A DNA stretch of 63,095 nucleotides, the filler included, from Hausera hauseri (lineage: Eukaryota), in the NCBI GenBank assembly GCA_046269625.1. It is 9 parts of 9 records of this genome, joined end to end, with 100 filler letters (N's around TTAATTAATTAA, not from the genome) between each part and the next. Parts side by side here need not be neighbours in the genome. Positions count along the whole stretch, not along the records: positions 47,334 to 63,095 come from JBJURY010388811.1; 8 more parts are not named here. One strand, written 5' to 3'. This document shows positions 28,310 to 63,095 of the stretch, piece after piece. Numbering within the stretch: the first letter of the stretch is position 1; each line of letters opens with the position of its first letter. A program made the translations under genes and the position numbers. The notes beneath the pieces are model-generated. The model worked only from the letters and a program-made list of their open reading frames with translations. It was not told where the DNA came from and did no database searches.

Positions 28310-28434
28310 TAAAGTGAAATCCCCTTATTCAACTATTTGTCAATCAAAGATATTTCTTAATATTTTATTCTCTAAATTGAAGTTCTTTTTGTTTTTCATA
28401 TTACTGTGCTCCTCACTCGGGGTACCAGTTTATA

Positions 28435-29125: not shown

Positions 29126-29387
29126 GGGATAATCATTGTATGTACTAGTTTATGACAATAAAATTTAGATTACAATAAAGAATATTAATCAATTTAGTTA
29201 TCATAATCCAAACAATTTCTATGAACAAAACAACAGTTACACCGGCGCCCTCTAAAAGGAGAAAAAATCGTTTCTAAGTAATGTGTATATTGTATCATCC
29301 ATTGGGTAATTCTCTAATCAAATAGTTTGTGCCACCTAGGCTATTCACTCTATCTTAGCCCTATCAATATTACCACCATCCGGGAAT

Positions 29388-29615
29388 TCAATCTATCAAC
29401 TCAACGATCACCGTTCTCCAATTAGGATACATTATACATTTCTCTAAACAACGCATGGTATGCACGTCAGTAAACAATAAATTCCGTCGGTCCTCATCCG
29501 TTATTCGAATATAGAATTTTACTTGTTGTATTTGGTACAATTCTTCGTCGTATTTAAACCAAACGTTAACGTTATGATGTTCTGGCAATGAGTATCTGTT
29601 GATCCTGTGACACAT
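29388..29615 (-). CDS. Small hypothetical ORF starting in the right repeat arm
   Basis: 75 aa. A frameshifted paralogous start lies on the + strand at ~29026 (..INRYSLQKHYYVNFWFKYNNELYQI*). Confidence 0.4.
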   Translation of the reverse strand: MCHRINRYSLPEHHNVNVWFKYDEELYQIQQVKFYIRITDEDRRNLLFTDVHTMRCLEKCIMYPNWRTVIVELID

Positions 29616-30210
29616 ATAGGTAGGCAGAAATTAATTTAACAAATATACTCCTTATAGTTTTGAAAGGGATTGTTGAAGTAGCTGATGCATAATAATAACA
29701 ATAACATAAATTTGATATAAGCAAGAAATAATGGAAGAAAAGCATAAGGGACCATTGAGGAGCATCATCTTAAACATACTAACACAAAGATAAGCATGCG
29801 TATATTTACGTGTATACGAAAAATGAAGAAAGGAGTAAACATTAGAAAAAACATTGCCATCGAGATAAACAGAGATTTAAATCTAGAAAGAAACGTTTAC
29901 ATGACTATTGAGAATGTGCAAAGAATATCCAACTTCAACGAGACTATATGGAAAAGACGAAAATAATAAAGTAAATTCTAGCAGTGTAAATGTACAGTAA
30001 GCACTTAAAATGTTTGGCATTTATATCGAATCTAACTCACATACACGCCTTCAGTTATGAGATGATATTTGAGAAGAAATGGTGTTTACGGTGTTTACAT
30101 TATGGTATCTTGAGACAGAAATTACCGTGGAAACACATCTGAAAAATGATTCCTTTATATGTGGATACAACTTAAGGTCAGCATTAGGTAAAGACCCCTG
30201 TATCACAACA
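29518..30210. repeat. Right arm of the ~690-bp diverged inverted repeat
   Basis: Reverse complement of 28435-29125. Confidence 0.9.
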
Positions 30211-31069
30211 TTATTAATAACCTGGTGATTTATTATTATTTAAAGAAATCTTAAAAAAGTCTCTTTGATTGATAACTCAGAATCAATACTGAACTTCCAA
30301 AATAATAGAATCCGGATTAGACCTATTATCGATTACAAGTAATATTTCGATTAAATTGTCGATGAAATTTTCATGATTTTAGAAATGAACAGACGAAATG
30401 AATTAAATAATGCCATGGATAACCATATTGGTGCTCGAGGAGAAATATTTGCGCTAAATGAATAGTTCACTCAGATTGGTAAATAATTTTTTAAATTCAA
30501 ATTTATGCCGCTATTTGTTTATTGATGTTAGATTTGTTGCCTTAATAGAATTTTTATTCGGAATAATAATTGTTGTGTATCTTTGATGGTTTGAAGAGTT
30601 GAGTTATTTTGATTATTTAATATTAATATGGTAAATTAATATAGGTATAATATTAAATAATTAATATAAGTTTTACATTATTCATATAATAAACATTGAA
30701 TTATTTAAGTGCGTCAGTGAGAGCTTGGTTCCAACTGCATTTAACTGATGTGAAATATTTAAACAGGTGCAGGTAAACTTGAGGTTTATCCGACCACCCG
30801 TGGAACACGTAAAAATAAGTTGCACAAGCGCAGCTTCCGTAAATAAAATGTTACATTGATAACAACATGAACGATGACATGTTATTAGTGAAATATTAAA
30901 CGAATATTTATTAGTTCAGCAAAATATCCAGAAGGCACAATTAATGAAATATTAACGATGAAAAAACGGCAAAAATTTTGATAATTCATAAAAATTCTTT
31001 TGCACGTTAAAGGGAAAATTGAAGATGCGCAAATGACGTAAGTAGGGGGAAAAAGCCGTTTCTGGCACA

Positions 31070-41753: not shown

Positions 41754-41899
41754 TATAAATAATGAATGTAAGTATATTATGTTTGGTAGTATTGGTGCAT
41801 AGTTTTCATCATTTTGTCCCATTTTACCGAATCTTACATTCACTTTGCGTTCAAATTGTTGCAATACAAACAAAAACCACACCGGCAACACCGACAACA

Positions 41900-42935
41900 A
41901 TGGACGTATGGTTCGGTCCACGTCATCCTGTTGGGTACACTGGAGTCACCAAAGTGGCAGAGATTATAGAAAAGAGTCGACGAAAAACCCGACAGTGCCT
42001 CGGGAAACAGTTAGCACACAGCCTGAAGAAAACAATAAAAAAACGGTTTCGAACTCGTGCATACTATGATCCACGCGTAAATAATCTACGGCAAATGGAT
42101 CTAATGGAAATGATTACATACGCTAACATTAACGATGGATATCTGTACGTGCTGACGTATATTAATGTGTTTAGTCGTTTTGCATGTGCAATTGCCGTCA
42201 AATCAAAACCCGGTAAAGAAATTGCCGACGCTGTTCATACATTAATAAAGCAACAACAACAACAACCACGAAAGCATGCAAAAACGGATTTAGGTAAAGA
42301 ATTCTACAACTCCAATGTTGCATCGGTCTTGAACCGGTTCGGTGTAAACCACTACTTTGTGTTTTCTCAATACAAGGCTGCACTCGTTGAACGATTTAAT
42401 CGACCCTGCGCAGTCGCCTAAACAAATTCTTTACTAAGCAAGACAATAAATGCTGAGTAGATATACTGCCGGATACTATCCATGCATACAATCATTTGAC
42501 ACATCATGGAATCAACAGATTACGGCCGGTTTGTGTAACCGGTGATTTGGACATGTGACTATATCCAAACCAAACACGACAAGCAACACTTAAACGTCCA
42601 AAATATAAAATTTGTGATTATGTACGTGTTTCAAACCTAAGTACAACGTCATTCATCAAAAATTTCAGAACTGGAGCGATAAAATTTTTCAAATTTTTGC
42701 AATCAACAGTATAAAATACCTGCCATGTATGTTTTGGATGATGAAACTGGTGAAAAAATACGTGGTAAATTTTACGAAAAGGAATTTGCTGATGCAGGTG
42801 CTGCCTGAGAAACCCGATGTGTATCCTATTCAGGAAATTCTGCGTTCACGCGGCAAAGGTTTGAATAAACAATATCTCGTCAAGTGGCATAGGTACACCA
42901 TACCGAATTGGATATTTACATCACAGATTGAATGA
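41900..42935 (+). pseudogene. Polinton retroviral-like (RVE) integrase with a C-terminal chromodomain
   Basis: QMDLMEM..NDGYLYVLTYINVFSRF, TDLGKEFYN, KAALVERFNR; chromodomain YPIQEILRSR..QYLVKWHRY..NWI. Confidence 0.92.
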
Positions 42936-43997
42936 GCGTTTACTTAGTACTTGACAGTAATAGAACATCACACCATGACAACAACAACAATAGCAATACG
43001 GCTGAACGGTTTATCATGTACTTGGACCAGGCATTAGATTTACGCTAGGGCGCGTGGGAAGCGGCTCTATCAGAATTTACATTTCAATTTTCACCGATAT
43101 CAATACGTGAGAACAGTGGTGTTTACTTTACTCTATTGGAGAAATCGCCTGCTTCAAGTCGTTTGCAGTTAATCCACGACTCTAAGCGAACATTTCATGT
43201 TCGCAATTATAAGCGGCAAAATTTCCCGATTTTTATTTTTTTATTTAAACAATCGTTTGTTTCTAAAACACAGATATCCGATTGAATTGCAATTTAAATC
43301 AATAGCCGATGCTCAGGCATTGGGTTTTCAATCCGCCAATGTGCGCTTGAAAGGTCCGAATCTAGGTGGACATGTCATAGCTAGTGAAAGAAAATTGAAC
43401 TTTTCCAAAAGCATGAAAACCGACATTATGGTAAACTCGCAAATGACAAAATGAACATTTTACTCGTATACTACGGCATACGGTTTACTGTTGGAATCGG
43501 AAACAGAATTGTGTGTATCCATCAGAGAAGTGGCTAAATTGACTCTGAAAACATTTAGATTAAACGCCGATGATCGTATTTCGTTTACATTACATGAAAA
43601 TATTATATATTTTGCCTTCGATGAACTAATGACACGGAATGTGAGCTTTACGAAACCTGAATCCGGTCAAACCGGCGGTGGTCGAGTTATTGTCGCTAAA
43701 TACAAGCCACGACTATATGGAGCATGTCAGCAAATCAACATTTTAACGGATCTGACCGAACTCATATTTGTTGGCGGAAAACGTAAACAACTATTGGTTT
43801 TTATTACACTGGATTCTGACACGTGCAAAACACCCGTCGAAACAGGTCATGTTAATATCATCCGGTTCATGTATTTATTGTTATCTCACAATGTTGTGCA
43901 CAGTATTTCGATGTATATACTAGATGAATTTTGGAAACCCATTAAATTTCTGTTCGGATCTACGACGCATTTGACGCTGCATTTTCGGCGTCAATAA
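42932..43997 (+). pseudogene. Polinton minor capsid (penton)-like protein, copy 1
   Basis: MSVYLVLDSN..NTAERF..LDL.*GAWEAALSEF; C-terminus ILTDLTELIFVGGKRKQLL..ILDEFWKPIKFLFGSTTHLTLHFRRQ. Confidence 0.8.
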
Positions 43998-44051
43998 TAA
44001 ACTGCGTTATCATCATCATCATTACAATCATCAGTGTGAATAAGTCTTTAC

Positions 44052-45060
44052 ATGGTGTTACCGAGTATTAGTTGCCTGACGACTCGACCGAACAATTCAG
44101 CCATTGTAGATTGGGAGAATCCGATAGATTTATCCGGACAGTGGGAGGTTGCACTGACGGAACTTAACTTTCCTTACGCACCTGTGACATTGAAAGGCAA
44201 TATGAAAATACATTACAGCACATCTCATCGGATCACGGCAAATGAACCATGTCAACTACTATTTGAAAATAATAAACTGTGGGCCAGAACCTCTTATATT
44301 GTTACGAGCGACTTTAATAAGAGCATAAAAGAAGACAAAATCCGTGTTATGCTAAAAGATGGAAAAGCACAGTTTTATTACAAAAGTAAAATTTACTGTC
44401 CACGTCAATTCCATTGAAGTGGCGAGAAATTCGGATTCAAAACTACAGAAATCCAAGCTAAAGCATCGTTGCTGATGATGCCATTGCACAAAATGCGTAC
44501 CTAGGAACATATGTGGACATTATTTCTAGTCGACAAAATATATCAACGGTGCATGATACATTGTGAATCTATTGTGAATCTGTAGCTGATCTCGTTCGGC
44601 ATTTTTAGCTAAAAAGTACCAATACATATTTAGAGCTTTAACGTCAGATACAAATGGCTACATCAAGGATGTGGTCAAAATTTCGTTGGGTAAATCTTTG
44701 ACCATGGTATTGGGTTTCGATAAACGGCAGTTTCAACCGAATAAGACACATGTTGCGACACTTAAACCAAAACTGGAAAATGGACTACATCAAATGTACA
44801 TTTACACGAACGTCACCGAACCGATTTTGGTCGGTGGAGTACGTGTACCGCTACTCCGTGCAATCTGTACGGAAAGGAACAGGTACACTGCTGGTGACAA
44901 TGTCATTGTCAAGCTCGATAATCCAATGTTCATATCCCTGGCATCTATATATATAAACAATATTGAAGTTAAGATCAAATGTGATGCAGGCTACTTTATT
45001 GAATTTCAGTACGGTACTACAACAACTCTAACGCTTCATTTATGTCGAAAATATGATTGA
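44052..45060 (+). pseudogene. Polinton minor capsid (penton)-like protein, copy 2
   Basis: MVLPS..PNN..PIDLSGQWEVALTELNFP; C-terminus MYIYTNVTEPILVGGVRVPLLR..IEFQYGTTTTLTLHLCRK. Confidence 0.85.
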
Positions 45061-45352
45061 TTCTCAAATCGTTTCCATTTCCAGTAAACCTCAGCATGGC
45101 GGTAAACTGCCGTATTTTGTCGGCAAAACTATGGTTCTGGGTGGTTGCGTGTTGAAAAGTATTGGAGCCATGGAAGCAAAAACAGCACAGGCTGTGCTAC
45201 AAGAAAACAAATCGATTTTACCATTGTTAAAGGAACACGCCTTGACCGAAATAAAGAGTGCTGCACCGGGAGTTGTTGAAACAGTCAAAAAACAATTCAA
45301 TGGCAATGGCTTGAAAAACAACGTAGAGCATCATAGAGCTTTTCAACTATAA
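45053..45352 (+). CDS. Small Polinton core-like protein between the minor and major capsid genes
   Basis: QHGGKLPYFVG motif, in the position typical of the conserved Polinton QxGG-LP-F protein. Confidence 0.5.
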   Translation: MIDSQIVSISSKPQHGGKLPYFVGKTMVLGGCVLKSIGAMEAKTAQAVLQENKSILPLLKEHALTEIKSAAPGVVETVKKQFNGNGLKNNVEHHRAFQL

Positions 45353-45380
45353 AGAAACGTCGTCGTATGATTTTATTGGA

Positions 45381-46540
45381 ATGGCATCTGCAAAATCTGA
45401 ATTAAGTAAATTTGACAAGGCCGCGCCACTAGTCGTTATTGGCAGTGCAGCATTTGAAAAAATCTATCCCGTTGATTCTGTTTCAATGGACGACAATATT
45501 GACATTCAATTACTCTACGGTTTGCGCTGCAACAGACACTGTAACACCGGCCAATTACCTTTTTCTCACTTTGTTCCAGCAGGCTTCACTGACTCTAAAC
45601 AATGTTAAAATTGAAGGCAACACCAGTCTATATAGTATCAAAGCTCTCGCTGAAACGGTGTCGAATTACATTACAGTGACGAAAACGTCTCATTTGACGA
45701 AAACCATCGGAAACAATGCTACAGCAGCAAATCGTCAGGCATGGATGGCAGAATCAAAAGCATTTACCATATGTGGACCGCTGTACTTTGACTTTTTCGA
45801 TCAGACAAAATACCTACTGCCTGGTGTTAAAGCCATGATTCAACTCAAACGCTGCGACAAGGTTTTCTGCTTGAAAGCTACAGTTGAAAATCTTAAGCCC
45901 ATAATGAAAATTACCGAGGCACGATTATACGTTCGTCGTTTAAAAGTAAAACCATCTGTGCTCATGTGACGTCGATTGGGTTTGGAAACGCAAAATGCCT
46001 GTTTTCCATTACAACAGACCGAACTCGTGTTTTACACCATACCCAAAGGTTCGACATCGTTCTATAAGGACGCGCTGTTTGGCGACATGCGATTGCCGAA
46101 ATTTGTGCATGTTACATTTCAAATGACTACTCAACAAACAGGCAGTTATACCACTGAGTCAGAAACGTTTACCCATAGCAATGTGAATGACATCAGTTTG
46201 GGCAAGAATGCAGATTTCATTGAGTCATCTGAGCAAAATTTCGAGACTGATAATAATGTTTGCACATATATGCAATCTATCGTGATAAAAATGGGTTTGC
46301 TGAACAAAAATATCAACAATGGAATATCTATGGATTTGTTCAAATCCGCCTATCCGTTCTTTACATTTGTCCTGGCTCCAGATTATGACGTTAAGCAGTC
46401 ACAACTACCTCAACAAGGAAATCTGAGGTTAGAGGTTCACATTTCGAAAGCGGTAGAAGAGTCTACCGTAATGTATATTACGGCGTATCTGATGCCGAGG
46501 TGAAAATAACGAAAAATAGAACCGTCATTGTACGAATAAA
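45381..46540 (+). pseudogene. Polinton major capsid protein (double jelly roll, PY)
   Basis: KSELSKF..EKIYP, PANYLFLTLFQQASLTLN, GPLYFDFFDQTKYLLPGV..LKR, EARLYVRR, RLPKFV and QQGNLRLEV; frameshifted, with a stop. Confidence 0.88.
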
Positions 46541-47333: not shown

Positions 47334-47598
47334 TCATATTTTCTGATAATTTCGCATAATCTCGAAATATGGTGTGTGGTCTTTGTTGATTAGAAATAGT
47401 TAAGATTAGATTTAACTTCAAATGAGGTGTTGGGGTTATTTGTGCCAATAAACATAGTTTATACATTGGTAATATACATCGGAATTTATTCTTAAATAAT
47501 GTAGTGCCCATTATGATTGTAAAAATATTGATAATTATAAGTAGAGCCTTCTCATGGCTCGTTGGAGTATACTTATTATTTTTTATTAATAAGGCATT

Positions 47599-50500
47599 TC
47601 ATGACCATATTGGATCCATTTGATTCTTTGGGTAATTCATTTGTGGAAGTGGCTGTCTAATATGATCGGTTGCTAATTTTCTTCCGGTCTCTGGGAATTT
47701 CACTGTCGATTGTACCAATACATTCGTCATACATAGCGCTAATATACGTGAAAATAATACCGCTTTACTGAGTTTTGGTTTCATGCCCTAATAGTTTATC
47801 GAAACAACTTTGATACTGCGTTGGTTATCCGGTTTGGTAGAATTTTCATTTGTAATGGGCTCTTGTTTTGGTGTGGGATTTGAAATATTTGGTTCAGTAG
47901 AGTTTTTATCTGTAGCAGATTCGTCTTTTGAGATGGACTTTGAAATGAGTTGACTTAGTTTACTAATATTTTTATCTATTTTTTATCAAGATTCCTTGTC
48001 TCTGACGGGACCTATAAATTTATTTTTCTCTTTCTTTAAATGTTGACTTATATCGGTAATTTGTTTATGTATTTTTGTTAGATATTTTAAACAAGGCATT
48101 GTAGTTACTGGAATTTCTTCCTCTGGCAGATCTATTAAATAATCTGTTAAATAACCTCCTTCGTTCTGTAACAGAACAACGTGGGTCAATCTTAAATAAG
48201 CGGTGATTCTGCTGGTCCATGTGATGTAAATTACTCCATTAGGGTTGGCTCAATATTTTTGAGCAAGTACATCTAATCTTGCATCATGTAACTGTACTGA
48301 TCGGTGGTAGATTTCTATGGTATTTAATTGTGTTATTCTAATTATTTTTTTGTCAGTTACTTTTATTCCTTTAGGTTGGTCTAGTTTCCTATTGAAACTA
48401 TGAAGGAGAATTTGGATCATATATTGTCTGATCTCTTCCGTATTGAAATCAGGTGCTAAGACAATGTTATTAATATGGAAATGATCTACCATTTGTCGTA
48501 ATAGATTTTGTTGTTCATATTCTTTAAGGTAATAAAAGTGATCCAATTAATCGTCCTTTCTGGTATATTATTATGGTTCAAACCTAGTTCCAATACAACT
48601 TAGTATATCCATCTGTTGATCTCTGGGGTTGGTTCTGATATCGTGTCTAGGCATTTACGCAGAAGTTTTGTCATAGAAACTTTTCTATCGGTAATTTTTG
48701 TTGACGGTAGTTGCATATTTTGTGATTTGTTTGTACAAAATTTTTAATTGGGATCTTCTTCTGTGATCATTCCTCTTTAGATTAAAATATCTGAATAATT
48801 ATCCGCACATCTTCTCATCATCTCATAGTAATGAAAATCATAATGTGACATGGGATTATAGCATCGGTATTTTTCCATGTCAAATAAATAATTTAGTGTA
48901 ACCTGTTTTTCTTTTGAGATTTCGAGGTTTTCTTCTTCTATACAATGGATAAACTTCCTTTGCCATTCTCTTTTTATAGTTTGTTCTCTTTCTAATTCAC
49001 TAAAATAATGTAGTACGTAAGGATCGTGTTTCGATGATTTATGAATTCGAGTTGGAGTTCTATTAAAGGTTAATGGAAAATCTTTGTTGACTTTATCCGA
49101 AGGTCGATTGAAACCTTTATTGTAGTCGCTATTTATCGTTTGTATCAACGTATTATAACGAGCACATCTCGAATAACCTTGAAATTCTAATTTATTGAAG
49201 TTTTGTTGAAGGCTATTAAACATGAATGCATTCGTACATATTGTTGAATGGTTGGTTTATATATTTTTACATGACGTAATAACCGGATAGTCCAAATTTT
49301 ATCTTTATATTCTTCTTTATTATAACCACGTCTCATGGCCCATCTAGTAATTTTCGTATCATAATACTTGCATATTCGTATTCTATAAATTGTCTCGAAG
49401 GATTGTCCTTTTTCGTAAATTTCTTTTCCCATTGGTAAATATGGGGTGACAATTTGGGTTGGTTCGGGCATTATGCACATACCTACTCTTTGCTCTCATC
49501 CATTCTCTGTCAAGGTGTATGATTCCTGATGCTATCTTATCTTCTAAGTATTAATCGTATAGCATTTCGACTTCATCTCGTAATTCTTCTAGCACTTTAA
49601 GCTTTAATTTTACCAACGTTTTGTAATATTCGGTTTTCTCGATTACATCTCTAAAGGGTTTTAACTAGTTCCTTTGTGAGGGATTCGTCTTCAATCCGGC
49701 TTCCCATAGTAACAGGTCTATCCATATGTGTTTTTTATACTCTTTTGGGTCATTTTTTACATTTTGCATTTTTCGCGTCCAAAGTCCGTTAATTACGTGG
49801 TCAGTGCCACAATCCTATACTAAGTCGTTGAGTATTTCCATGTCCTGTGTTGAAATTTCCGATTGTTTGGGTTTATGCAAAGCTATATTAAGCAGTTGGT
49901 AAACAAATGTATTCCACGTGGTAAATGATGTAAAAACGCCTGCATGTAAATTGAGAGGATTGGTTTTCATATACTGCTGAGCCTCTAAGGCGTAGGCATC
50001 GCCTTGTGCGAAGTATTGCCTATCAACGTTAAAAACGTTTGTTTTTAAATAGTGATAATCTGGAGATTGTCGTTTATCTGGGAATCTAGTAATTTCCCAT
50101 AAGAATAAACGCATTCAGGTCTGCCTATAACTCATTTCTATGTCTGGTACTATTGATATTTCTCTAGCTGGTTTTATTTTAGTGCTGTCGGTTTTCTGAT
50201 CTTGTATGTACTGTTGGCGAAGGGTGTGTATGATTTCATTTAGGTTTTGATGTGGATATTGTTCCTTTAGCGTAGTAATTTCTCGTTCAATGTTCAAATT
50301 TTGGTTTAATGGTTTGTTTAACCTTCGTAGAAAATACGTTATTTCATGTACTTCTATTGATCGGTCAACATCATTCTTCTTGTAGTGTTTAAATCTTTTT
50401 ATTATCGATGATATATTTCTGTATGATGAGTTATCCCAAGTGTTTCCTTTTGCTATTTCATTATTTCTTATTGCAGCGCATGATTTTAACAGTAATAATT

Positions 50501-50890
50501 TATCTTCTGCTGGCATTTCCTCCTAGGTTTTACCAAATTCCATTAGTATGGTGTCTATGACTGGTTTAAATGTATTGTTTCCCGAAATAATATATCGATC
50601 TATTGCTATTCGATTGAGTTCCATTTGAACTTCTTTGTTATCTATCCAAGGTAAGTAGTCGAATTCAATTCTTGGCCATGTACGAGTTTTAGCAGTTTCC
50701 TTTATTGGAACAGTCGATGGTTCCTTTAATGATTGTTGTGTACAAGAATTTTTTGACTATAGGTTCTAGGTTATTTCTACTTTGGGTATATTGTAGTTTT
50801 GAATGACCCTTGGGGCTAATATTGTAGGAATGGCGCCTAAAAACGCTTCTCTATTTGCTCGTTTTTTCTTTTCCCATGCTGTCTTTTGAA
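47599..50890 (-). pseudogene. Distal part of the 3' extension, unknown helical protein(s)
   Basis: ORF fragments 50115-50516, 49815-50114, 49187-49480, 48777-49223, 48250-48546, 47986-48189 and 47599-47784; no recognisable motif. Confidence 0.55.
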
Positions 50891-51868
50891 TCAAATTAAT
50901 TCTTTTAATTGCTCGACGACATATATTGCTAATACATGTGATATGAATTTCACATATTTTAAATAATCTTGTTTACTTGAACTGACTGGTTGTGCAGCAC
51001 AGTTTCCGATTAAACAGCATATTACCCGGGTAGATAGAAGTAATGGATTTAGTATACCGTAGTTTCCTTGGTCTTCTTCGTAATTAGGAGGAGGTAATTG
51101 TTTGGTTGTCCTTTGATAGTATCTTACTACTTTGCAACATATATAAAATGCTACTACTATTAATGCTACTACAGTGCTACTGGCTAAACCAATTATAAAC
51201 ATTAGCAATAAAAATGATTTGTAATCAACAACTGGTAAGGTAAGGATGACTGTATATTCATAATGGATTGCTTCAGTTGAAGTTACATTAAGTGCTGACA
51301 AGGCAATACGTATTGCTCTTCGTTTGTAAATGCATGGTGACTTGCCTGAAACATCTTCATACTTTGAAGGTGGTTTTTCATTTGCTGTTTCTACGTCCAG
51401 CATTAATTGCTCTCTTCTTACTTCTCTCCGTATTTTATAAGACCTTTTGATTAATATGGCGATATAACTAATTAATGCAAGGACGAATGATATTGGTAGC
51501 ATTAGTGATATTATGTCCATCGTTTGATTGTGTGCATATGCTTCTTTGTTGCATGTCCTGGCTTTAACTATGGGTATTAAGCTGCTTCCTTTCATAAATC
51601 CATTGATTGTTGGTAATATGTCTCGTCTAGTGAAATTGAATCGCTTATATCGCTTGACTTTCTTGTTGAAGAATATTATCCCTCCTATTATGAGACTAAC
51701 TAAGAGTGTCAATATTACTGCAGAAATAATGTATTCTAGTATGGATATTGAAGGGAATATTGGTTTGTTTGCTGGTACTGTTATGTTGGTAGTCGTTTTT
51801 GCGTTAGCTTTCTTAATTAGTAATGATGGTATAAGTATTGGTGCTGTTAGAGTAAAAGGTTTAGTCAT
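50891..51868 (-). CDS. Multi-pass segment with repeated signal-peptide/AxA/TM units and a PPxY motif
   Basis: ..LLIKKANA-KTT..TM-KK; ..IPIVKA-RT..TM-KR..PPSKYE; ..VTSTEA-IH..TM..PPPNYEE; ..LIGNCAA-QP.. Confidence 0.65.
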   Translation of the reverse strand: MTKPFTLTAPILIPSLLIKKANAKTTTNITVPANKPIFPSISILEYIISAVILTLLVSLIIGGIIFFNKKVKRYKRFNFTRRDILPTINGFMKGSSLIPIVKARTCNKEAYAHNQTMDIISLMLPISFVLALISYIAILIKRSYKIRREVRREQLMLDVETANEKPPSKYEDVSGKSPCIYKRRAIRIALSALNVTSTEAIHYEYTVILTLPVVDYKSFLLLMFIIGLASSTVVALIVVAFYICCKVVRYYQRTTKQLPPPNYEEDQGNYGILNPLLLSTRVICCLIGNCAAQPVSSSKQDYLKYVKFISHVLAIYVVEQLKELI

Positions 51869-51877
51869 AAATTTTAT

Positions 51878-53026
51878 CTAATCATTGATTCTGTCTCGTT
51901 CAATTGACTTTCTTTGCGCTATTATTCTTTTCCTTTCTAATTTAAAGTTTTCGGCTTTTTCATTTGGTATGAGTAGTAAACAAAAAATTAAACGGTATCG
52001 AATAGTATTTATTCGGCCAGATAATCCTTCTGCGTATACATTACAAAATGAGTATATATCTTGGTAATCCTGTTTAGAGAGTTCTTGATTTAATTTTCGT
52101 TTTAAATATTTATTCAATAAAATTTTAATTTCTTTTTCTTCTATCACTTGTAATGCTTCTTCATCGAGTTTGTCTTTTAACGCTATGATTGAATAAGCTG
52201 TGATATATTGTGTATAAATATCACCTTTACACTGTTGTCTTAGCTCTAATCCGAACCATTCATACAAGGTTAGATGGTAATTGATTACACTATACATTTC
52301 ATGGTCATCAACGTAATATTTTATGCCAGGTAATTCGTTTTTGATTTCTCTTTTAATGTGACTGACTGGCAAAGGGGCTCTATCACCTCGAAGAAATCTT
52401 GTCAAAAATGTCCGTTCAGCTTTACGTCCTATAAATAAGGGTTCATAGTCCATGCTTGATCCGATTATAAGTGACTCATCAGAATTAAAATCATGGCTTA
52501 TATTTAATAAGTCGACTGATCTTATTTTTTCCAACAATTGCGGTATAGTTGATAGTTGTAACTTATGCATAATTAACAGTTCGTGTTTTTTATTTCCAAA
52601 GTGTATAGATTTTATTCCGCATCTATAATTCCATGCCTTGGCTAATTCATGCATAGGGCTATACCATGAAAGCTTTAAACCAGATACATTCATAATTTTA
52701 TCAAATATTATTAATCCTGAGTTATAGTTGGTTCGTTCGTTTTCGTAACGTTGTCTAAATGATCTACCTTCGTGCAGTGTATCCTTAGAAAGTTGGCATT
52801 GGAAGCTGGTGATTAATAGTAAGTTATCTCTCACGAGATGAGTGGTAGGATTATATCTTGATTCTTTCTGGTATTGTTCGAAATATTTCTTGTACGTGTC
52901 GAGATATGAGGTTATAGGTTCTCTTCTAATGTGACTGGGTGTCTCCCATAAACGATTTGCGTATTGAATACTTTGATAGATAGTTGTGTTATTTCTTCGA
53001 CAGACTTGTATTCCATTCTGGTACAT
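51878..53026 (-). CDS. Unknown protein containing repeat-domain copy A
   Basis: 382-aa ORF; YEPLFIG..ERTFLTRFLRG..FGLEL..AYSIIALKDKL..KILLNKYL..GLSGRINTIRYRLIFC. Confidence 0.7.
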   Translation of the reverse strand: MYQNGIQVCRRNNTTIYQSIQYANRLWETPSHIRREPITSYLDTYKKYFEQYQKESRYNPTTHLVRDNLLLITSFQCQLSKDTLHEGRSFRQRYENERTNYNSGLIIFDKIMNVSGLKLSWYSPMHELAKAWNYRCGIKSIHFGNKKHELLIMHKLQLSTIPQLLEKIRSVDLLNISHDFNSDESLIIGSSMDYEPLFIGRKAERTFLTRFLRGDRAPLPVSHIKREIKNELPGIKYYVDDHEMYSVINYHLTLYEWFGLELRQQCKGDIYTQYITAYSIIALKDKLDEEALQVIEEKEIKILLNKYLKRKLNQELSKQDYQDIYSFCNVYAEGLSGRINTIRYRLIFCLLLIPNEKAENFKLERKRIIAQRKSIERDRIND

Positions 53027-53618
53027 TAATAGTGCAGCTCTTTTGGTTGAATCAGATTGTTTAATTTCCCTTTACAATTACAAATGAGTTACATAAGCTT
53101 GTCTGAGATCGTTAATCATCATCCTTTTGTCGGGGTTTTGTTCGAGTATTGCTACTGGGTTTCTGTTGTTTAATGGTAATTTGGCCAAACGGTTGGCTAC
53201 TGTATATAGCTCATATTCTTCAGTTGATAATTCATGACGGTCTTTGCGAAGCTTGTTTATGTCGCGAAGTATTGAAATTATTTTGTTGGTAGTTAAATAT
53301 GGATGTTCGGCTATTGATCCTACTCCTTGTTCTATCAATGTTATGATTATTTGCGTTTCCTCTGAGAGTACGTCAAATGGGGAATAAATTTTTTCCTTTG
53401 TGTAATTAATAATTTTTTCATTCTGTGATATTAGCTGTATATAATGGCGATTTAGCCTGGGCTCCTTCGCATAAGTCTCTAAGTTTAGTTGGACTGGGCT
53501 ATCTAATTTTAACCATTCTGTTGTTTAATCAAAATTCTTAATAAAGATTTGACTTTCTAGTTTATCTTCTTGTAGTCTTTTTCTTTCATAACGCTCTACT
53601 TGTTGAGATAGTGATAAG

Positions 53619-55359
53619 TGTGATGCCCACCGCGGCCGGTGCCCTTCGGCCCATTTTGGTTGGGCAAGGCCGGGCGTCCGATATAGCCGCGTCCGATCCA
53701 TAGTCGGGCCCGATCTTCCGCCTCGAGAATTTCGCCCGCTGAACTTTCAAGCGATATTCAAAATATTTTATTTTCAGTTATTTAATGCCACCGATTTGTT
53801 TGTTTGGTTAGAAATGGAACATTACTTCCAATGATTTCGTGTTTATTTCCATATTTGAAAGTCCCACGTACTCTGGGATAGTTTTGTTGTTAATAGCTTA
53901 TCCTACACCGAATTATGTTTGGCCTACATGCAACGTATCGTCGGTTGCTTTGATTTGCCAAATCACATCATTCTCGGTTTTCTTCCAAAATGTCTTTCTG
54001 TCAGTTGCATTAGTTGTATGTAGCAGTCCTGGCACTATTATGGACGACCGTAAACGATCTGCTGTTCTGTGCACTATTTACGTTAAATTGACATTTCATC
54101 CGACTGAATTCAATTTTTGTCATAAAGAATTAGTGCTCGTCAAACAAATGCACATCCATTCAATTATCAAATACGACAAACGACAAAAACAAAAATGTTG
54201 ATACATACCGAACACAACTAGAAAAGAAACTGCATAAAAATGCTTTCACCGATGCCGTTACTTTCGTTGAAGCAAAACCGGAGTCAAACGTCTCTATTTA
54301 GCTGCCTGATTAATTGCTTTTAATATTCTATATCTCATGGTTGGATACCATGCAGCATTTCTTGCTATTTTCATTGGTTTTGTTTACCCGTCTTATTGTA
54401 GTGCCAAAGCAATTGAAACAAAAGACGGTGCCACAAAACGGCTGACGTATTGGGTTGTTTACGCTACGTTCAGTCTTATAAAATTCTTTACGGACATTTT
54501 CCTGTTTTGGATTCCGTTTTATGCCTTATTGAAATGTATATTCCTTATTTATTGCATGGCAACAACAAATTGGAACGGTTCAGTTGCAATTTACTATGGA
54601 ATCATTCGACCGTTCATTCTTAGTCATGAAAAGAAAATTGATTCGGAAATTTCACACACTGCACGAGTCGTTGCAGATTCTGCTGAAGAAGCCTAGAGAT
54701 CATCCAACGAGTACAAAACGGAATAATCAAATATAGTGTTCTATTTATTTACAAACAGATAATAATGTAATAAACGGACAAAATTTTGACTCCCACTTGT
54801 CCAATTTTGTGTTCTAACGCTTGTTATTTTTTGATTATTTAAAATTAGTTTGTACTTGAATTACTTAACATTTATTGTTTTGATTTATCGTAATAAAGTC
54901 TGGCTTTACATCCAAACTATATATGTGGTCTGTAATTTCATTTAATCACCGTGTATTCCCTTTTAAGCTGCATGTGTGTATGATTATTAGAAGGTCATTG
55001 GCAAAAAAGAAAAAATTAAATTATGGAGTTTGCTTTTCAATTTAAATCTTATTTCTCCATTTTAAAAAAAATTTGTTTTCAAAGTTCATTGTGTGATCAT
55101 ATTTCGATTGTTACCAGGATCTTACGTATTCGACTCATTACGTGCCAAGTTAAAAAATAACGGAAATTTTGGATTATTTATTCTGTTATCAAATTCTACT
55201 AATCCCAATATTTTTAGTGATTGAATTCAAAATAAAAAGGACGGTTCTAATCGCGACAAATTTGTTCGGAGCTAGGTTATACACCTAATTTACTTTTCGT
55301 GGAGAAAAGAACAAGGCAACATCTGGATTTCGCTTATTCAATTAATATTATAAATAACA
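53619..55359. mobile_element. 1741-bp TGT...ACA insertion (solo-LTR-like) with 5-bp TSD ATAAG
   Basis: ATAAG at 53614-53618 and 55360-55364. Excision restores the open minus-strand frame ..QNTVPNPY|LSLSQQVERYERK.. Confidence 0.75.
54190..54696 (+). pseudogene. REEP5: Intronless REEP5/DP1/Yop1 (TB2/DP1-HVA22 family) copy
   Basis: LEKKLH.KNAFTD..GVKRLYL..IGFVYPSYCSAKAIETK..LTYWVVYATFS..LFWIPFYALLKCIFLIYCMA..NGS..IY..IIRPF; frameshifts and a stop in the N-terminus. Confidence 0.88.
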
Positions 55360-56119
55360 ATAAGTATGGGTTTGGTACGGTGTTTTGGGATTCACTTCAC
55401 CCTATTCGCCTGAAGCAATATTCGCTCGTGGGATGAATATTTTCTTTATTTCTCTCGGGTAATAGAGACTTATTAATTGATATTTCTTTTATCGTTGCCA
55501 ATGTTTGACGTTTCATATATTTCAGTTTGATAGTTGGAACTTATGTTATGGTATGTCCTTCAGTTAGGATAATCTCTTCGTCCTTACTACTATTTGATTG
55601 TTTAAATTTCTTCATGAGAAACATTAAATTTACTAGGATCAGTAATAATAACCATATAGATGAGATTTCTTGCTTAGTACCAATTGTCGTAAATGCGGCT
55701 TCAGCCGTTCCGAATAATATGAATGGTATAAAAAGTAATATTAATGTTGAGTAAGTAAACCCGTTAATAATTTTGCCAGAGTGACTTTCGTCTAGCGTTA
55801 ATAGGATGTCCGTATTACTTTCCTTGTTGATATATGAATCCTTCTGCTATATTTGCTGTGTTATGTTGATAGTTTCAGATTTATCCTGATTGATATTACT
55901 ATTGTCCATTGTCTGGTTTTTATGATTGTTGGTTTCCGTTACTACAAATGGGTTATGATCGTCATTTCTTTTTATGTCGTTACAGTTATTATCGCTATGT
56001 AGTGTATCTTCTTGTTCTTCCAATTTGGATAATTCTTCGTTACAGTGTATGGGTAGTATGTGTTTCTCAAAGGTATTCAATCGTCGTATATTTTTTGTCA
56101 ATTGTGGTGCCGTTTCTTT

Positions 56120-57631
56120 TTCATTATCTGGTTTTAGTCGGCAGACATTTATTAACCTTTCCGTTCTTCTTTAAATGGTTTATCTATTTCTTTGTCGTCG
56201 TTTAATTCGCAAAATATTAGATTGTAGCGTATGTCATTTAATTTGCCTGAAAATCCACTTGCATTCACGATGTCGAATTTATCTACATCTTCGTAATCAG
56301 AAGGGGTCAGTGGTGTTTTTTCTTCTCAATTCAGATAATTATTCCATAATATTCGTGCTTCTTCTTCATAAGCATCTATTTCATCCTGAGTAAGTTCGTC
56401 TTTTATCGCCATAAGTGTGTATGTCAACCAACAATTGATCATAAAGGAGTCTGTTTGGACCTTATTTATTAACTCTTCGCCGTAATTTTTAAATAGTCCC
56501 AGACATCTATCGACCAGTTTGGCAATTTTTTTTTGGAAGTTTATTTGCTATTAGTTCAGGGAAATTCTTTAAAGGAGATTCATTAAATACGCTGCGGGAA
56601 ATAATAATGGTATTCCTTTTAAGAAGCTAGTAATCAGCACACGTTCTCTACGGCTTCCGACGAATAAAGGTTGATATTTAGTTTTGTCTCCATACACTAT
56701 GCTTTCTTCGTGGGTTAGTCGGTATTTTTCTATTAATGGGTCGAACGACCAAAGGCAACGTATTATTTGTAATGTAGATTGGGTCTCTAGTCGAGTTTTT
56801 AACAGTGATTCATGTTTTGGACATATGGGTTTGTTGATTGGTGTCCCCATTACATCATCCCAAGTTTCTATCATTATATTGGTAGGTTGTAACCATATGG
56901 GTTGTAGGGATATTTCCATTAAAATTTGTTGAAGCAAGTAAAATCCCTCGTAGTATACCTTAGTTCGAAAATCATTCGATGTGTAGGGTAATGACGTATT
57001 GGTTGAAATTTTATAAGACGTATACAGGATGCTAGCTATCTGTAGCAATTGGTATTTATAATCCGATTCTTTAAAGTTTATTCCTGTTTCTTGTTTTATC
57101 CGATCGAAATATGGTTCATATAGGACTATATAATTTTATGAAGTCTTTCTGTTCCTCGTTGGGTAATTAATCTATACTACCTCCTAACAATAGACAATTA
57201 ATAATGTCTCTGTCCCATTCATGGGGAGTCTCTCCGAATATACAAAGTGTGGTAGTATGCTGGTCATCGTGAAGCATGGTGACGGGTTGGTCATCTTTTG
57301 GTTCGATGTCGTTTAGCCATTGTTCGGTTCCATTTGCTATAGGGTGTAACTTTATTGTGGTGTTCAAAATATATCGGTCGTGCGGATATATTTCCATTGA
57401 ATGGGTGACGAGATGCCGTATTGGTTGATATACTAACCTATGTATTACTCGGTCTAATTCCTCTATGACTGACGAGAGACTGCTTGGATTTGTTCTTAGA
57501 GTGTTTATTACCCTAGAGTAAGGAATTATCTCGTTGGCCATGGCATAATTGTAGTCACGTAGAGGATCTATTATGTTTGCTACGGTTGCTAGAATTGTGC
57601 TAGTTTCGGGTGTCATCATTACTGACGTCAT
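56120..57631 (-). pseudogene. Unknown protein containing repeat-domain copy B
   Basis: YQPLFVG..ERVLITSFLKG, then after a frameshift RCLGLFKNYGEEL..NCWLTYTLMAIKDEL..EARILWNNYL..GFSGKLNDIRYNLIFC. Confidence 0.7.
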
Positions 57632-58135
57632 GTTAAGATCCTCTTGTATTGTTTCTGTTTAATCTGATCCAAGTAATTGTCCAGTTCTATATGGTTTATA
57701 TTCGCTTCCGCTCTTGTTTAGTCCATCCATGGCGTCTTGTATGGGTTTATGTAATTATTTCCATTCTTTAGTATTAGTATAGTCTTTTGGAATATCTCTT
57801 TGGGACAGTAATATTTTTGTTTCTTTGTAGGGGGTTGATGTTTTAATTCGATATTTCTTCTATCTTTGTATTGATTTGGATATGATACCCTCTTTTCTTT
57901 ATGAGAGGAACAGTCGTGATGTACTTTTCCTTTCTGATATTCTCTTACTATTTGTATTAGACTAAAATAATTGTCATCATGTTTTACTTGTTGGTGATAT
58001 GGTTCTTCAAATGATTGTCCGTCGAGTGAAGAGTTCGGCTAGACCTTTTTGGTTACATGACCTAATATTCCATTTGTCAGTTATGTGTGTCCTATTAGGT
58101 GTCTTTGAATATTTAACATGGCGGAAGCTATATAC

Positions 58136-59883
58136 TAGGGCGAGTTGTATTTATGTTCCAAAATGGTTTTGATATAAATTAGATCTTTACGTTCTATCTT
58201 GAAAAGTTCTGCTATCTCTTGATCGTCGTCCAACATGCAAATTAGTAGTCTGTAACGCAGAGAATTTAGATTACCAGACAATCCTCCGACGTTTACTTGT
58301 TCCAATCGACTAATTCTTTTGTTATCTTTTCTAGTTAAAAGAGTGTCTCTATCTCTACGTAGATAGTCATTTTATAGTATTCGGGCTTCTTCCTTTTCCA
58401 TCTCCTCTATTTCTTCTTCTCTTAGTTCGTCCTTTAAAGTCATTAGCGTATATGTTAACCAACAATTGACTGTAAACGAATTCTTTATTTTCTGGTTTAT
58501 TAATTCTCCGCCAAAATTCTTGAATAGTCCGATGCATCTTACTCCTGCTTCATCGGCTCTTTTTTGGGATATATAGGCATCGCATAATGGGGATGTCTCT
58601 TGCAATAAGGTAAGTATACTTACAATAGGGATTTATGATATCTCTTATCTTAATAAATGAGTAAAAAAGATTCGTTGTTGTGGGCTTTCAATAAATAGGG
58701 TTTTATACCTCATTACATCTCCGTCAAGGGAACAATTCAATGTCAATGTCTTCTTAATGTAAGCATTTTTATCATCGCACGTCAGCCCGCTATTTTTCCA
58801 GTTCCAATCAAAAGTATGGACGCGATGTATCAATTCTGATAAGGTGTGTGTGCTGTGGTTTAGATTTGACATTAATTGTGTTTCGCAGATTTCCTTTAGA
58901 GTCTGTGCTAATTCTCGATAGTCTGAGTGTTCTTCTGTCGGTTGGTTAATGTAAAGGGATTCCAGTGATTTTCCTGCATTATTTTCGGGGAATTCGTTTG
59001 TTATGCAATCTGAGATGTTAAGTGTTTTAGGTTCTCTTTTATTGGGATGTCCATTCCAACTAAATGTTGGGATGCGTATTATCTTCCAGGATCCATTTGT
59101 TTTATCTTTATCACTAAAGAATTTACCTAACATTAGCAACGAGAGTAACCACAATAATACTGAGGTCCATGTGGGACTCAGGTGTTGTGATGTAGTCTCA
59201 GCTGCGTTTGCTATATTGATCATAAATAGAAAACATATTCCCATGAAAAGTAACGTTCCCAATGGGAACGTAGAATAACCCTTTATTCCTGAAGATTCTC
59301 GTTTTTTATCCTTTTCTTGAAGGGGTTGGATATGCATGGCTCTTGTCTCGTTAGAGATTTTATCCATATATTTAATTCTGTTTCCTGCAAATTGTAGTTA
59401 ATCAATTTTCATCTACTGTTTTGGAGGGAGATAGCTATCTAAGGGTTGTTCCATTTTTCTATTCCAAGCTCGTTTTACTTCTTCTACTTCATTAATGATT
59501 TCTCGACCTCCTATATTTAGATTATGGTGTTTATAAATTTTTAACACCCGGCTGGCTGCCACATAATAATGGTGTTGTGATTTTCTTGTACTGGCTAAGT
59601 CGGGAATTGTATAATATACCTCTTCACAACTTATGTTTATTAGAAGTTTATCCAGTGGGGACAATGTATTGGAATCCAATTTCGGATCTTCGCAAATTAG
59701 TTTCATTACGGGCCTATATTGTTCGTCTGTTATCCCGCACTTTTCGTGATATTTACCGAGAAAATCGCTTAATTCCATTACACTATTTATGGGTCTCTTG
59801 ACTAGTTGCAGTGCGTGATTAATAGGCTCTGAATTGGCTAGCAGAAAATTTTCCAATCGGTGTCGGTTTGCAGCCTCTCTCAT
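58136..59883 (-). pseudogene. Unknown protein: TM pair plus repeat-domain copy C
   Basis: One frame with isolated stops: ..MINIANA-AETT..TM..YKTLFIE..QRIFFTHLLR*..RCIGLFKNFGGEL..NCWLTYTLMTLKDEL..EARIL*NDYL..GLSGNLNSLRYRLLIC. Confidence 0.7.
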
Positions 59884-60572
59884 TAAAGGGAGTGGTGGTA
59901 GATTTTTCCCTTTTGTTGAGGTAATTCGAGGTAATTTTGTTCAAATAATTTGACTTTTTTGCATTGTACTCGCCCACCGCGGTCCGATCTCATTGTTCTA
60001 ATTTTGTTATTTATTAGTGGTTTATTGATTTCATCAGGCTGGTATTTTTTAATTTTTTCTTTTAGGAGTCTAATATTTTCTTCTGCCTCTTGTAATTTTT
60101 CATTTATAGTGCTATAACGTGCAGGTGTTTGGAATTTATTTGTGATTTGCAATTCTATCAAGTCGGGATAAATGGAAGTTGTTGATACTGGTCTTGGTAA
60201 GTCTTGTAAAGAATTTCGTAATGGTTTCTTCGGAATACTCGTTATGATAGATACTGAATAGGTGGCCATTTTGGTTATTGAGGGTAAGGGCACTTGTCTT
60301 CTTCTATGGTCATTCGAAGAGAGATTAACTGCTTCCTCCTCGTCGCTTGTCATATTACTTTGAAACACATAATATACATATATCAACAATAGTACAACTG
60401 CACTACTCCAAGAGTTAGTCGTGGTAGTGACTGAGGTTGGTTGGGCGTTCGCGCATCCAAATATAATGAGTAATATTAAGGTTATCAAGGTTATGGTAGA
60501 CAAATTAAAAGGATTTCCGAAGATGATTGTGGGGGTATTGGTTGAAGGTGTTTCTATTATTCGAATTTGCAT
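59883..60572 (-). CDS. Signal-peptide/TM pair followed by a coiled coil
   Basis: FNLSTITLITLILLIIFGCANA-QPTS..SSAVVLLLIYVYYVFQSN..EEE, then INEKLQEAEENIRLLKEKIKK. Confidence 0.6.
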   Translation of the reverse strand: MQIRIIETPSTNTPTIIFGNPFNLSTITLITLILLIIFGCANAQPTSVTTTTNSWSSAVVLLLIYVYYVFQSNMTSDEEEAVNLSSNDHRRRQVPLPSITKMATYSVSIITSIPKKPLRNSLQDLPRPVSTTSIYPDLIELQITNKFQTPARYSTINEKLQEAEENIRLLKEKIKKYQPDEINKPLINNKIRTMRSDRGGRVQCKKVKLFEQNYLELPQQKGKIYHHSL

Positions 60573-60602
60573 TATTCTTTGAGCTAGTGGGGATTCTGTA
60601 TT

Positions 60603-61100
60603 CTATTCAGTCGTTTGCTTTAATGTAACATAATATAATGAGGGTGGAACAGTCTCTTCCCCTGGTGCGAACCACCACTGATCATTAGTCTGAGGATTTG
60701 TATCTTGGTATCCTTCGCAATTGAATACAATTGATCTTCCAATGACTTTGAGTACTGCTCCTATCAGTTTGGGTAGTACATCTAAACCAATAATAAGATC
60801 AGAATACGACTCTTGTGGGTTGGCGTAGCAAGTAACATCAATATATCCTATGGTTAAATCTAATTTTCCGCACGCATCGGGTATATAATGAGTAATTCGT
60901 CTATATAATCGTAAATTTATGCGGGTCAATGTGGTAGTGATATCGAGTTCCGCATTAACATACTTACCGTATACTTTGACTAATATTGGTGTTAAGAGAG
61001 GGTAATCGTTATAGCTTTGAAGATAATGCATATTATATAATAATTCTAACCCTTTTATTTCGTCATCTAATTCGTTTACGTTTTTCGGTACTTCTCCCAA
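60603..61100 (-). CDS. Degenerate retropepsin-like domain 2
   Basis: ILVKVYGKYVNAELDITTTLTRI (cf. ALLDTGA)..GKLDLTIG..SDLIIGLDVL. Confidence 0.6.
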   Translation of the reverse strand: MGEVPKNVNELDDEIKGLELLYNMHYLQSYNDYPLLTPILVKVYGKYVNAELDITTTLTRINLRLYRRITHYIPDACGKLDLTIGYIDVTCYANPQESYSDLIIGLDVLPKLIGAVLKVIGRSIVFNCEGYQDTNPQTNDQWWFAPGEETVPPSLYYVTLKQTTE

Positions 61101-61109
61101 TCTTTCTTT

Positions 61110-61470
61110 TTTTCCAGTGAGTTTGTAGCTACGTCTATCACGATATCATAATATATTGGCGTATCTCTACCTATGATACAAGGGATTGTAGTATTTTGTA
61201 GTATGTGATACAGGATCTTTGATCGTTTACTTTTCAATTTAGTTAGGCAGTGACTACGCCTATTACTTTTAAATGGTTTCCGTTTATTAGCTTGTGATTT
61301 ATTTCGCTGCTTTCGATTAGTTTCAATTTCAGAGTTTCCATCGTAGTTTTGTTTAAATAATTTTTTGCGGTTCCTTTATCTACTCTTGCTTCTATTTCAC
61401 CTTTATTTATGGTTATCGTTGTGGTTACAGTATTATTTGATCCACCGCCTATGAATGTAATCGTCGTATT
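61110..61470 (-). pseudogene. Retropepsin-like domain 1, directly after the integrase (not in the ORF track)
   Basis: ITINKGEIEARVDKGTAKNYL..INGNHLKVIG; after a frameshift YHILQNTTIPCIIGRD..DIVIDVATNSL. Confidence 0.7.
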
Positions 61471-62614
61471 CTTGTCTTAAACTGCATTCTGCTCCTTAAT
61501 GGGTATTTACACGATGGTGTTTGTTCCAATTTACATTCTTTGGATGTTGGTCTACATCGTTGCGCACTTATCCAAGAAGTTTTATTAGGGTTGGATAGAT
61601 TCTGTAGTTCTAAACTTGATTCAGTTATTTGTAGTATTTTGTATGGTCCTTTGTAAGGTAATTTTAGTTTAGGGCTTTTGCCTGGTTTACAGGTCTCATC
61701 CAATATGTTGACTAGATCTCCAATTCGATATATATATATATGGGGTTTTGCCTTTTTATCATATTGATGTTTATAATTTCTTGGTGGTATTTAATTTTTA
61801 ATCCGGCTCTGATCCATGCTTCTTGTAATCTTTCTTGTAGAATTGTTACATAATCCGGTTTCTCCATCATTTGTGATTGTGGCTGTCTATATTTTAAATC
61901 AATTGGCACAATATCTCGTCTACCATACAGTAAAAAGAATGGTAATTCTCAAGTTGTTGTATGGAGACTTTGTCGGTAGGCATATACACAAGTTTTTATA
62001 TACAAATCCCAATCAGCTGGATGGTCATATGGGTAGCTAGATATCATAATTGAAAATTGTTTATTAAAGGCTTCCACTGGGCCATTGGCTTGAGTATAAG
62101 GTGAGATAAGTTTGTGATTAACTCCTAATATTGTTAGTACTTTTTCCATAAGTTCGCTGCAAAAGGTGCTTCCTCTATTGGATATCACTGTCATTGGCAC
62201 TTAATATTCAAATATTACGTCATCGACTAATCTTCTGGGCATAAAATCCGTGGTTCGATTTACTATTGGCATTACTATTGGAAATTTTGAGTGGTAATCT
62301 ATTGCTGTAAGTACACATGTATTTCCTCTGGCGGTGGTTGGTAATGGACCCACTATGTCAACACCTATACAAACAAATGGTGATGCTAAAACTGATACCG
62401 GTTTTAGTGGTGTTTTTCTTGCTTGGATATTTCCTCTTCTTTGTGAACATACGTGACAATTTTTACACCAATCATTCACGACATCTGCTATCTTTGGCCA
62501 ATAATACTTTTGCTTAAGTCTGCCTAGTGTAGCTTTATAACCTCGGTGTCCGCCGAGTTGTCCGTCATGGTAGTGTAGTAAAAGTTTTATGCGAATGTGT
62601 TTTGGTACAACCAT
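61449..62614 (-). pseudogene. Gypsy-type integrase (H2C2, core, GPY/F)
   Basis: HDGQLGGHRG..YYWP..CHVC; PFVCIGVDIVGPLP..IDYHSKF; SNRGSTF; QANGPVEAFN; KLKLPYKGPY; YPLRSR. Confidence 0.93.
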
Positions 62615-63095
62615 GAGTAAATCTTAGCTCTCTTCATAGTAGATATTTCCTCTATCCATTTTATATTTATTTTTGCTCCCTTATTTATTTTGGCTATTAT
62701 GAATTTTCCAAATTTCTTTGTCCTTTGCTTGTTCTTTGGCTATAGCTTCGTGCGTAATTGGTATTGTCAGGACTGTGTGCATCTCTTCGCTGACCTCCGC
62801 ATTATCTACTTCATCTATCATAGCTTGAATTAGGTCAGTCATTTTGTAATATTCGTATAGAATGTCTTCAACGAACGGATCTTTGTGGTCACTTTGTTTT
62901 GTGTTTCTTTGGTTATCTTTGTTCAATGTTTGAATAATTATACTTATTAACTGATCTGTATCCGTAGTGTGCTTTTTTCGTATTGTCTTAGGTACGTCCG
63001 GATTAAGTTTCTGTGAATAATATTCTTTTAAGTCGTGCATGTCATCGTATTCGGGATTAACTCAGTCATTATAGTTTTTGTCAATGTCATTTTCT

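Follow-up and report, generated by a model that had tools for sequence, protein, structure and literature searches.

Retropepsins need two aspartates, which are supplied by a dimer, and a dimer-to-pepsin fusion is the proposed hypothesis for the origin of pepsins. In the pepsin family (A1), two protease lobes are found in one chain, the second with a reduced flap. To our knowledge, few features of LTR-retroelements are as fixed as the position of the protease and its activation through dimerization.

The Burro/GYPSM1 elements of planarians are giant, cargo-laden Gypsy elements with many copies, and the accessible parts of their description give them one protease with the polyprotein cargo upstream of it (PMC6431247). 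GAG-ENV-POL errantiviruses are known from flatworms, nematodes, and bryozoans, and non-canonical ORF orders have been described for them in the accessible text of PMC13524379. That text uses the word "protease" a single time, the seven supplements searched do not contain it, and none of these parts describes a tandem or post-integrase protease. In the accessible text of the LTR-element literature, including PMC6431247, PMC13524379, PMC5408684, and PMC11410931, no tandem, extra, or post-integrase proteases were found; this refers to text and not to figures, and a prior annotation is possible.

Layout of the element from integrase to tail

The window, the whole stretch of 63,095 nucleotides from Hausera hauseri (GCA_046269625.1) that was analyzed here, is AT-rich and animal-like and contains eight N gaps, and its last contig spans positions 47335-63095. 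An earlier note on this DNA had reported two tandem retropepsin-like domains after an integrase, which was borne out, with the motifs at their minus-strand sites and the integrase directly upstream. Stops and five frame changes interrupt the stretch from the integrase to position 59900, and this copy of the element is dead. In the strand-bias profile, an A-rich coding strand (minus) runs unbroken across the protease pair and the tail.

The H2C2 zinc finger and the core of a Gypsy integrase are located at 61778..62740 (minus strand), with 4 stops in 317 codons. They were recognized by Pfam (H2C2, PF17921, E 3.6e-19; rve core, E 7e-08) and by similarity to P0035, a polyprotein described below (36% identity, E 3e-66); with its C-terminal domain, the integrase occupies 62740-61490. 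The C-terminal domain (GPY/F, SH3-like) at 61488..61832 (minus strand) has a frame change near 61780, matches P0035 residues 3189-3297 at 34% (E 5e-11), and ends in YPLRSR. The element in the window carries all parts that define a Gypsy-type integrase, namely H2C2, DDE core, and GPY/F. The best integrase match was P0004 with 253 bits, compared with at most 170 bits for the other 30 of the 31 matches. In a tree of 33 rows, the integrase is sister to that of P0035 (support 100/99) and groups with this Gag-Env-Pol polyprotein; the tree had no named Burro sequence. A search for the integrase among proteins of 2090-6650 residues gave one match among 349 candidates, which was unrelated. Homologue searches yielded none of two candidate stretches in viral contigs and two of 396 candidates in metagenome contigs, both of them distant.

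Upstream of the integrase lies a spacer of at least 110 codons (62740..63095, minus strand; open frame 63061-62684), for which about 25 codons are counted in P0035. Homology to P0035 begins only at 62737 and the pol profile at 62779; neither revealed an RNase H in this spacer up to the window end at 63095, and the spacer matched no family. RT and RNase H would fall beyond position 63095, where the contig stops, and any upstream protease or Env would likewise lie outside the window.

Behind the protease pair, a signal-peptide-like segment with an A-x-A end is followed by a second hydrophobic segment (60360..60512, minus strand), as seen in the hydropathy profile with the signal peptide judged by eye; its placement matches the post-integrase signal peptide of P0035. 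The long decayed coding tail then covers about 13 kb (47335..60359, minus strand), as judged from self-comparison and the A-rich coding strand. Including the segment at 60360..60512, four hydrophobic modules are present, the other three being at ~59270, ~55750, and 51870-51200, and several of them end in A-x-A sequences that resemble signal-peptidase sites by eye. Self-comparison also revealed three paralogous helical modules (58722-58024, 57150-56158, and 52924-51740, minus strand; E 3e-31 and 2e-12, 28-29% identity), each adjoining a signal-peptide/membrane module before or after it. These modules fit no known family in Pfam, gave 0 matches in a PDB profile search, and had weak ESM matches (recognition 1692), and their model (pLDDT 44.9) matched nothing at E 0.001 in a viral library. 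A derivation of the three modules from decayed integrases was rejected, as the profile scores were negative and 28 of 60 column shuffles scored as well. No LTR was recognized before the contig gap, and no long direct repeat was found in contig 47335-63095.

On the opposite strand within the tail, an intronless ORF of the REEP/DP1 family was noted at 54310-54696 (plus strand; PF03134, E 4.9e-22), which is either a retrocopy insertion or a captured gene. The surrounding stretch of ~53600-55450 has a weaker strand bias and shows no clear target-site duplication.

The two protease-like domains

Domain 1 begins about 25 codons past the integrase C terminus and occupies 61109..61422 (minus strand), where a frame change near 61245 interrupts it. 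Its triad reads DKG at 61380-61372, thereby departing from D[TS]G in the window copy. The glycine of its IIGRD motif lies at 61171, 70 codons after the aspartate and across one frame change, which is a normal spacing, and the flap is present, as it aligns without gaps to the flap of P0035. Against a profile built from 16 proteases of other, unrelated Gypsy matches, domain 1, with X at the frame break, scored 33.2 bits over profile positions 3-104, a value reached by none of 2000 shuffles (best shuffle 8.6), in agreement with the retropepsin origin that the earlier note had assigned to it. Its halves score separately with 19.2 and 13.4 bits, and in a six-frame scan of 846 segments of the window these halves were outranked only by ordinary Gypsy proteases at ~32200 and ~21700. 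In the Pfam check recommended earlier, neither protease domain reached the cut-off; the piece of domain 1 yielded 14.8 bits and 28.2 are required. The best match of domain 1 is the DTG protease of P0035, with a score of 110 compared with at most 69 for 16 others and 32 for the DTA domain of P0035, so that the protease indicates the same clade as the integrase does.

A linker of about 35 codons (61005..61108, minus strand, from translation), with a frame change near 61085, separates the two domains; its counterpart in P0035 has about 58 residues. Domain 2 (60642..61004, minus strand; open frame 61145-60603) has weak support from profile, hhalign, and ESM Atlas. Its aspartate lies at 60944 within ELDIT, and DLIIGLD starts at 60800. 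The triad reads D-I-T, without the triad glycine, and neither D[TS]G nor a full flap is present. The spacing between Asp and Gly is 52, compared with 66-87 in all 20 references, and the domain is about 18 residues short, with the gap mapping to the flap. The profile of 16 proteases gave it a weak score of 4.0 bits, which 6 of 2000 shuffles matched. With a profile of 20 sequences including the P0035 pair, it scored 6.8 bits (1 of 3000 shuffles) and, in hhalign, E 0.0025 with a probability of 12% (0 of 150 shuffles). In the ESM Atlas, domain 2 has a value of 0.94 to RVP/gag-asp clusters; it shares 154 of 256 features with them, whereas matches within one family typically share 170. The description of domain 2 as the more degenerate of the two is upheld by the missing triad glycine, the shortened flap, and the weak profile scores.

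No Pfam match was obtained for domain 2, and PDB sequence searches gave no protease match for either domain. An AlphaFold model of domain 2 alone, from a single sequence, was unusable (pLDDT 31.5). Homologue searches with domain 2 at longer lengths returned none of 508 candidates, and when 1.84 billion representatives were searched at E 0.001, domain 2 with the next 240 residues had 0 homologues. The tail of domain 2 resembles the start of the dUTPase-like segment of P0035 (EETVPP/EETVLP). Against the DTG domain of P0035, domain 2 scores 55 with this tail and 49 without it, and the best outsider, cut without a tail like all outsiders, scores 45, which makes for a weak tie between domain 2 and P0035. 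The residue after the aspartate of domain 2 is private to the window copy, as 99% of the local depth has another letter that is nearer to the usual triad; the per-residue copy differences comprise 1056 rows, and the 40 listed include this residue but no other triad position of either domain.

Domain 1 shares the fold motifs, the flap, and the spacing of retropepsins (clan AA, family A2; Pfam RVP, gag-asp_proteas). The pair differs from usual retropepsins in being two in tandem, placed after the integrase, with triads that are non-canonical in the window copy and a shortened domain 2. It is similar to pepsins (A1) in having two protease lobes in one chain and a reduced flap in the second, but proteases of LTR elements are the nearer relatives of both domains, two intact triads are lacking, and the order differs from that in P0035. 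Because its flap and spacing are kept, domain 1 is likely to be the enzyme of the family, as far as can be read from its sequence. Domain 2, which has no triad glycine and a much reduced flap, is likely a pseudo-protease and a dead partner.

The closest relative and other copies of the element

P0035 is a 3735-residue member of the cluster of P0004, both being unnamed ENA proteins, and represents an intact Gag-Env-Pol polyprotein. Its order is Gag, CCHC knuckles, Env (PF24664, E 1e-91), RVP in two stretches, RT, RH, and IN, and the integrase is followed by a signal-peptide-like segment and then a membrane segment. Its tandem proteases upstream of RT have DTA at residue 2024 and DTG at residue 2180, that is, one intact triad of two, and the DTA domain keeps a normal Asp-to-Gly spacing of 71. 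The distance from aspartate to aspartate is 156 residues in this pair and 145 codons in the pair of the window. By eye, the segment behind the second protease is dUTPase-like. Among the 31 integrase matches, two protease motifs were found in the P0035/P0004 cluster only, which is no survey, as most of the others start at or after their protease.

The element in the window and P0035/P0004 are alike in the integrase, in tandem retropepsins with one degenerate triad and similar spacing, and in a post-integrase signal peptide and membrane segment. In P0035, on the other hand, the pair stands ahead of RT with the degenerate domain first and both flap spacings normal, whereas in the window it stands after the integrase with the degenerate domain second. 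The post-integrase tail of P0035 comprises about 440 residues and that of the window element 13 kb, and no match between these tails was found. As an observation of its own, residues 2005-2275 of P0035 (DTA, then DTG) are of interest as a candidate for a natural protease/pseudo-protease pair in an intact polyprotein.

P0035 follows the Burro plan as given in the accessible parts of PMC6431247, with Gag, CCHC, an in-frame Env between Gag and Pol, a protease, a segment that is dUTPase-like by eye, and RT-RH-IN. GAG-ENV-POL errantiviruses have the same plan in the accessible parts of PMC13524379, and the Env of P0035 resembles, by eye, that of the planarian Smed_errantivirus_1 in its supplement. 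The window element shares giant size, many copies, and a cargo-laden polyprotein with Burro, and differs from it in having two proteases and a 13-kb coding tail, both downstream of the integrase. BIR, AIR1, and BCL2 are absent from contig 47335-63095. The term "Burro-like" refers to layout and not to a direct comparison with a named Burro protein.

The evidence from other copies comes from a single run (X1), possibly of the window's own sample; no RNA run was listed as containing the stretch. In this run, 12,736 contigs fell on 59300-63095 and covered all 30 bins; 757 of them were at least 99% identical to the window, 2113 were 95-99%, 5157 were 90-95%, and 4709 were under 90%. Among the 8 contigs listed, one that is ~81% alike (record 7) connects the integrase with the triad of domain 1, another crosses the frame change of domain 1, and two that are ~81-83% alike (records 3 and 5) join domain 2 to the downstream hydrophobic module. 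The inter-domain linker is spanned by none of these 8, beside which there are 12,760 further contigs. At all five frame changes between the integrase and 59900, other copies differ in length, at 5-40% of the local depth. When the 7 listed places of length difference were distributed at random, none of 200,000 placements hit all five frame changes, with intervals that were drawn after the table had been seen. These differences suggest that in the family one frame runs from the integrase through both domains. The diverged copies with shared flanking junctions, together with the five length differences, make the layout look family-wide and not like a one-off nested fragment, in line with the earlier view that the pair belongs to the element itself and not to a separate nested retrotransposon. 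Over domain 2, the summed contig depth was about ten times that over domain 1, although contig depth cannot rank genes.

Origin and possible role of the pair

Domain 1 is homologous to retropepsins and domain 2 probably so, both are positioned after the integrase, the integrase is the sister of that of P0035, and P0035 has a tandem pair of its own. Judged from these sequences, a tandem pair is not unique to the post-integrase site, the closest relative having one upstream of RT. The two domains of the window are not alike (z 0.9), whereas the two of P0035 are (z 10.4). A quick tree of the proteases contained no starred group, and the DTG domain of P0035 was nearest by path to both domains of the window. 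The cassette sits between the end of the integrase and the signal-peptide-like segment, which in P0035 directly adjoins the integrase. We see a somewhat better than even chance that the pair is a duplicate of the tandem cassette kept ahead of RT in this clade, with an enzyme and a dead partner. The copied cassette, which would end where the dUTPase-like segment begins, would have been inserted between the integrase and the post-integrase signal peptide. As one live and one dead domain occur in reverse order in P0035, an ancestral tandem pair whose members decayed reciprocally fits better than a fixed two-lobed enzyme.

If the cassette had been moved and not copied, the order would be (Gag-Env)-RT-RH-IN-PR-PR', and the post-integrase pair, as the sole protease, would process Gag and Pol from the opposite end of the polyprotein. 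The pair does look lifted from the canonical spot with its tail included, diverged copies keep it next to the integrase, the region upstream of the integrase departs from P0035 in the length of its spacer and in showing no RNase H there, and a variable ORF order is described for env-carrying Gypsy lineages in the accessible text of PMC13524379. A move is nevertheless regarded as unlikely: it requires a loss in addition to a duplication, duplication is the habit of this element according to the internal duplications of its tail, and PR-RT-RH-IN is given as the order in the accessible parts of PMC5408684 and PMC6431247. Non-canonical triads in both domains of the window copy, the high divergence of domain 2, and the abrupt stop of the cassette at the start of the dUTPase-like segment would also agree with a jobless passenger, that is, a protease-region fragment of a related element that arrived by template switching or nested insertion and was fixed early. 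We consider such an event quite improbable, given that only ~25 codons separate the integrase from domain 1, that no LTR, Gag, or RT adjoins the pair, that the strand bias is continuous, and that ~81%-alike copies retain the junctions while the frame changes look private to the window copy.

The earlier note had also raised the possibility of a single-chain, two-lobed enzyme. Such an active pepsin-like enzyme, in which the full flap would come from domain 1 and a second lobe with no flap from domain 2, could be accommodated by the plausible linker, by the two retained aspartates, by the private nature of the variant after the aspartate of domain 2, and by the fact that pepsins use one flap only. 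It is made less likely by the dissimilarity of the two domains, by the loss of about 18 flap residues, and by the absence of the triad glycine from domain 2 in the window copy; pepsin homologues with alanine or threonine at this glycine, the pregnancy-associated glycoproteins and Bla g 2, are inactive. The degenerate domain is second here and first in P0035, where the DTA domain has normal spacing, which argues against a fixed lobe plan, and a single active chain appears very unlikely. Least credible to us is an element without RT, in which a Gypsy integrase would form the basis of a Ginger-like DNA transposon and the retropepsins would be C-terminal cargo. The missing RNase H within 110 codons upstream of the integrase would fit, and Ginger integrases bear C-terminal protease domains of other classes, but the integrase is sister to that of an RT-bearing Gag-Env-Pol element and the post-integrase layout with signal peptide and membrane modules parallels P0035. 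It is also doubtful, to much the same degree as the passenger, that a giant env-type Gypsy family has both a moved cassette (RT-RH-IN-PR-PR') and a pair that works as a natural single-chain retropepsin with a full-flap and a short-flap lobe. If true, a retroelement would have repeated the duplication and fusion from which pepsins are proposed to have arisen.

For the duplicated cassette, a mechanism may be proposed in which the integrase and both protease domains are likely read as one polyprotein. Domain 1 would be activated in the retroviral way, by dimerization between polyproteins, with domain 2, tethered through ~35 residues, as a non-catalytic partner that damps or times this activation. 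The protease would then free the integrase and cut up the long tail protein, and the downstream hydrophobic A-x-A modules could be cleaved by the host signal peptidase. A clade with tandem proteases, one of them degenerate, that can also be placed after the integrase would show that the layout is flexible. Such pairs would offer natural tethered protease/pseudo-protease systems for the timing of giant-polyprotein processing, and the pair would be a present-day counterpart of the fusion that is proposed to have led from a dimer to pepsin. The intact P0035 makes the tandem pair testable without the dead copy of the window.

Other elements were noted elsewhere in the window. A cluster of RING-finger ORFs with a BIR domain (E 1.5e-07), a Burro-type cargo, lies at 28324-26106 (minus strand) on a separate contig, which has no similarity to the last contig, and long inverted arms were observed near this cluster at 28434-30211. 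At 41759-46503 (plus strand), an rve integrase (E 1.6e-11) is followed by ORFs that resemble Polinton capsid genes by eye and have no Pfam match. Two further stretches, 33125-31501 (minus strand), with the triad DAG, and 21544-21966 (plus strand), hold gag-protease(-RT) fragments of ordinary Gypsy elements, each with one protease.
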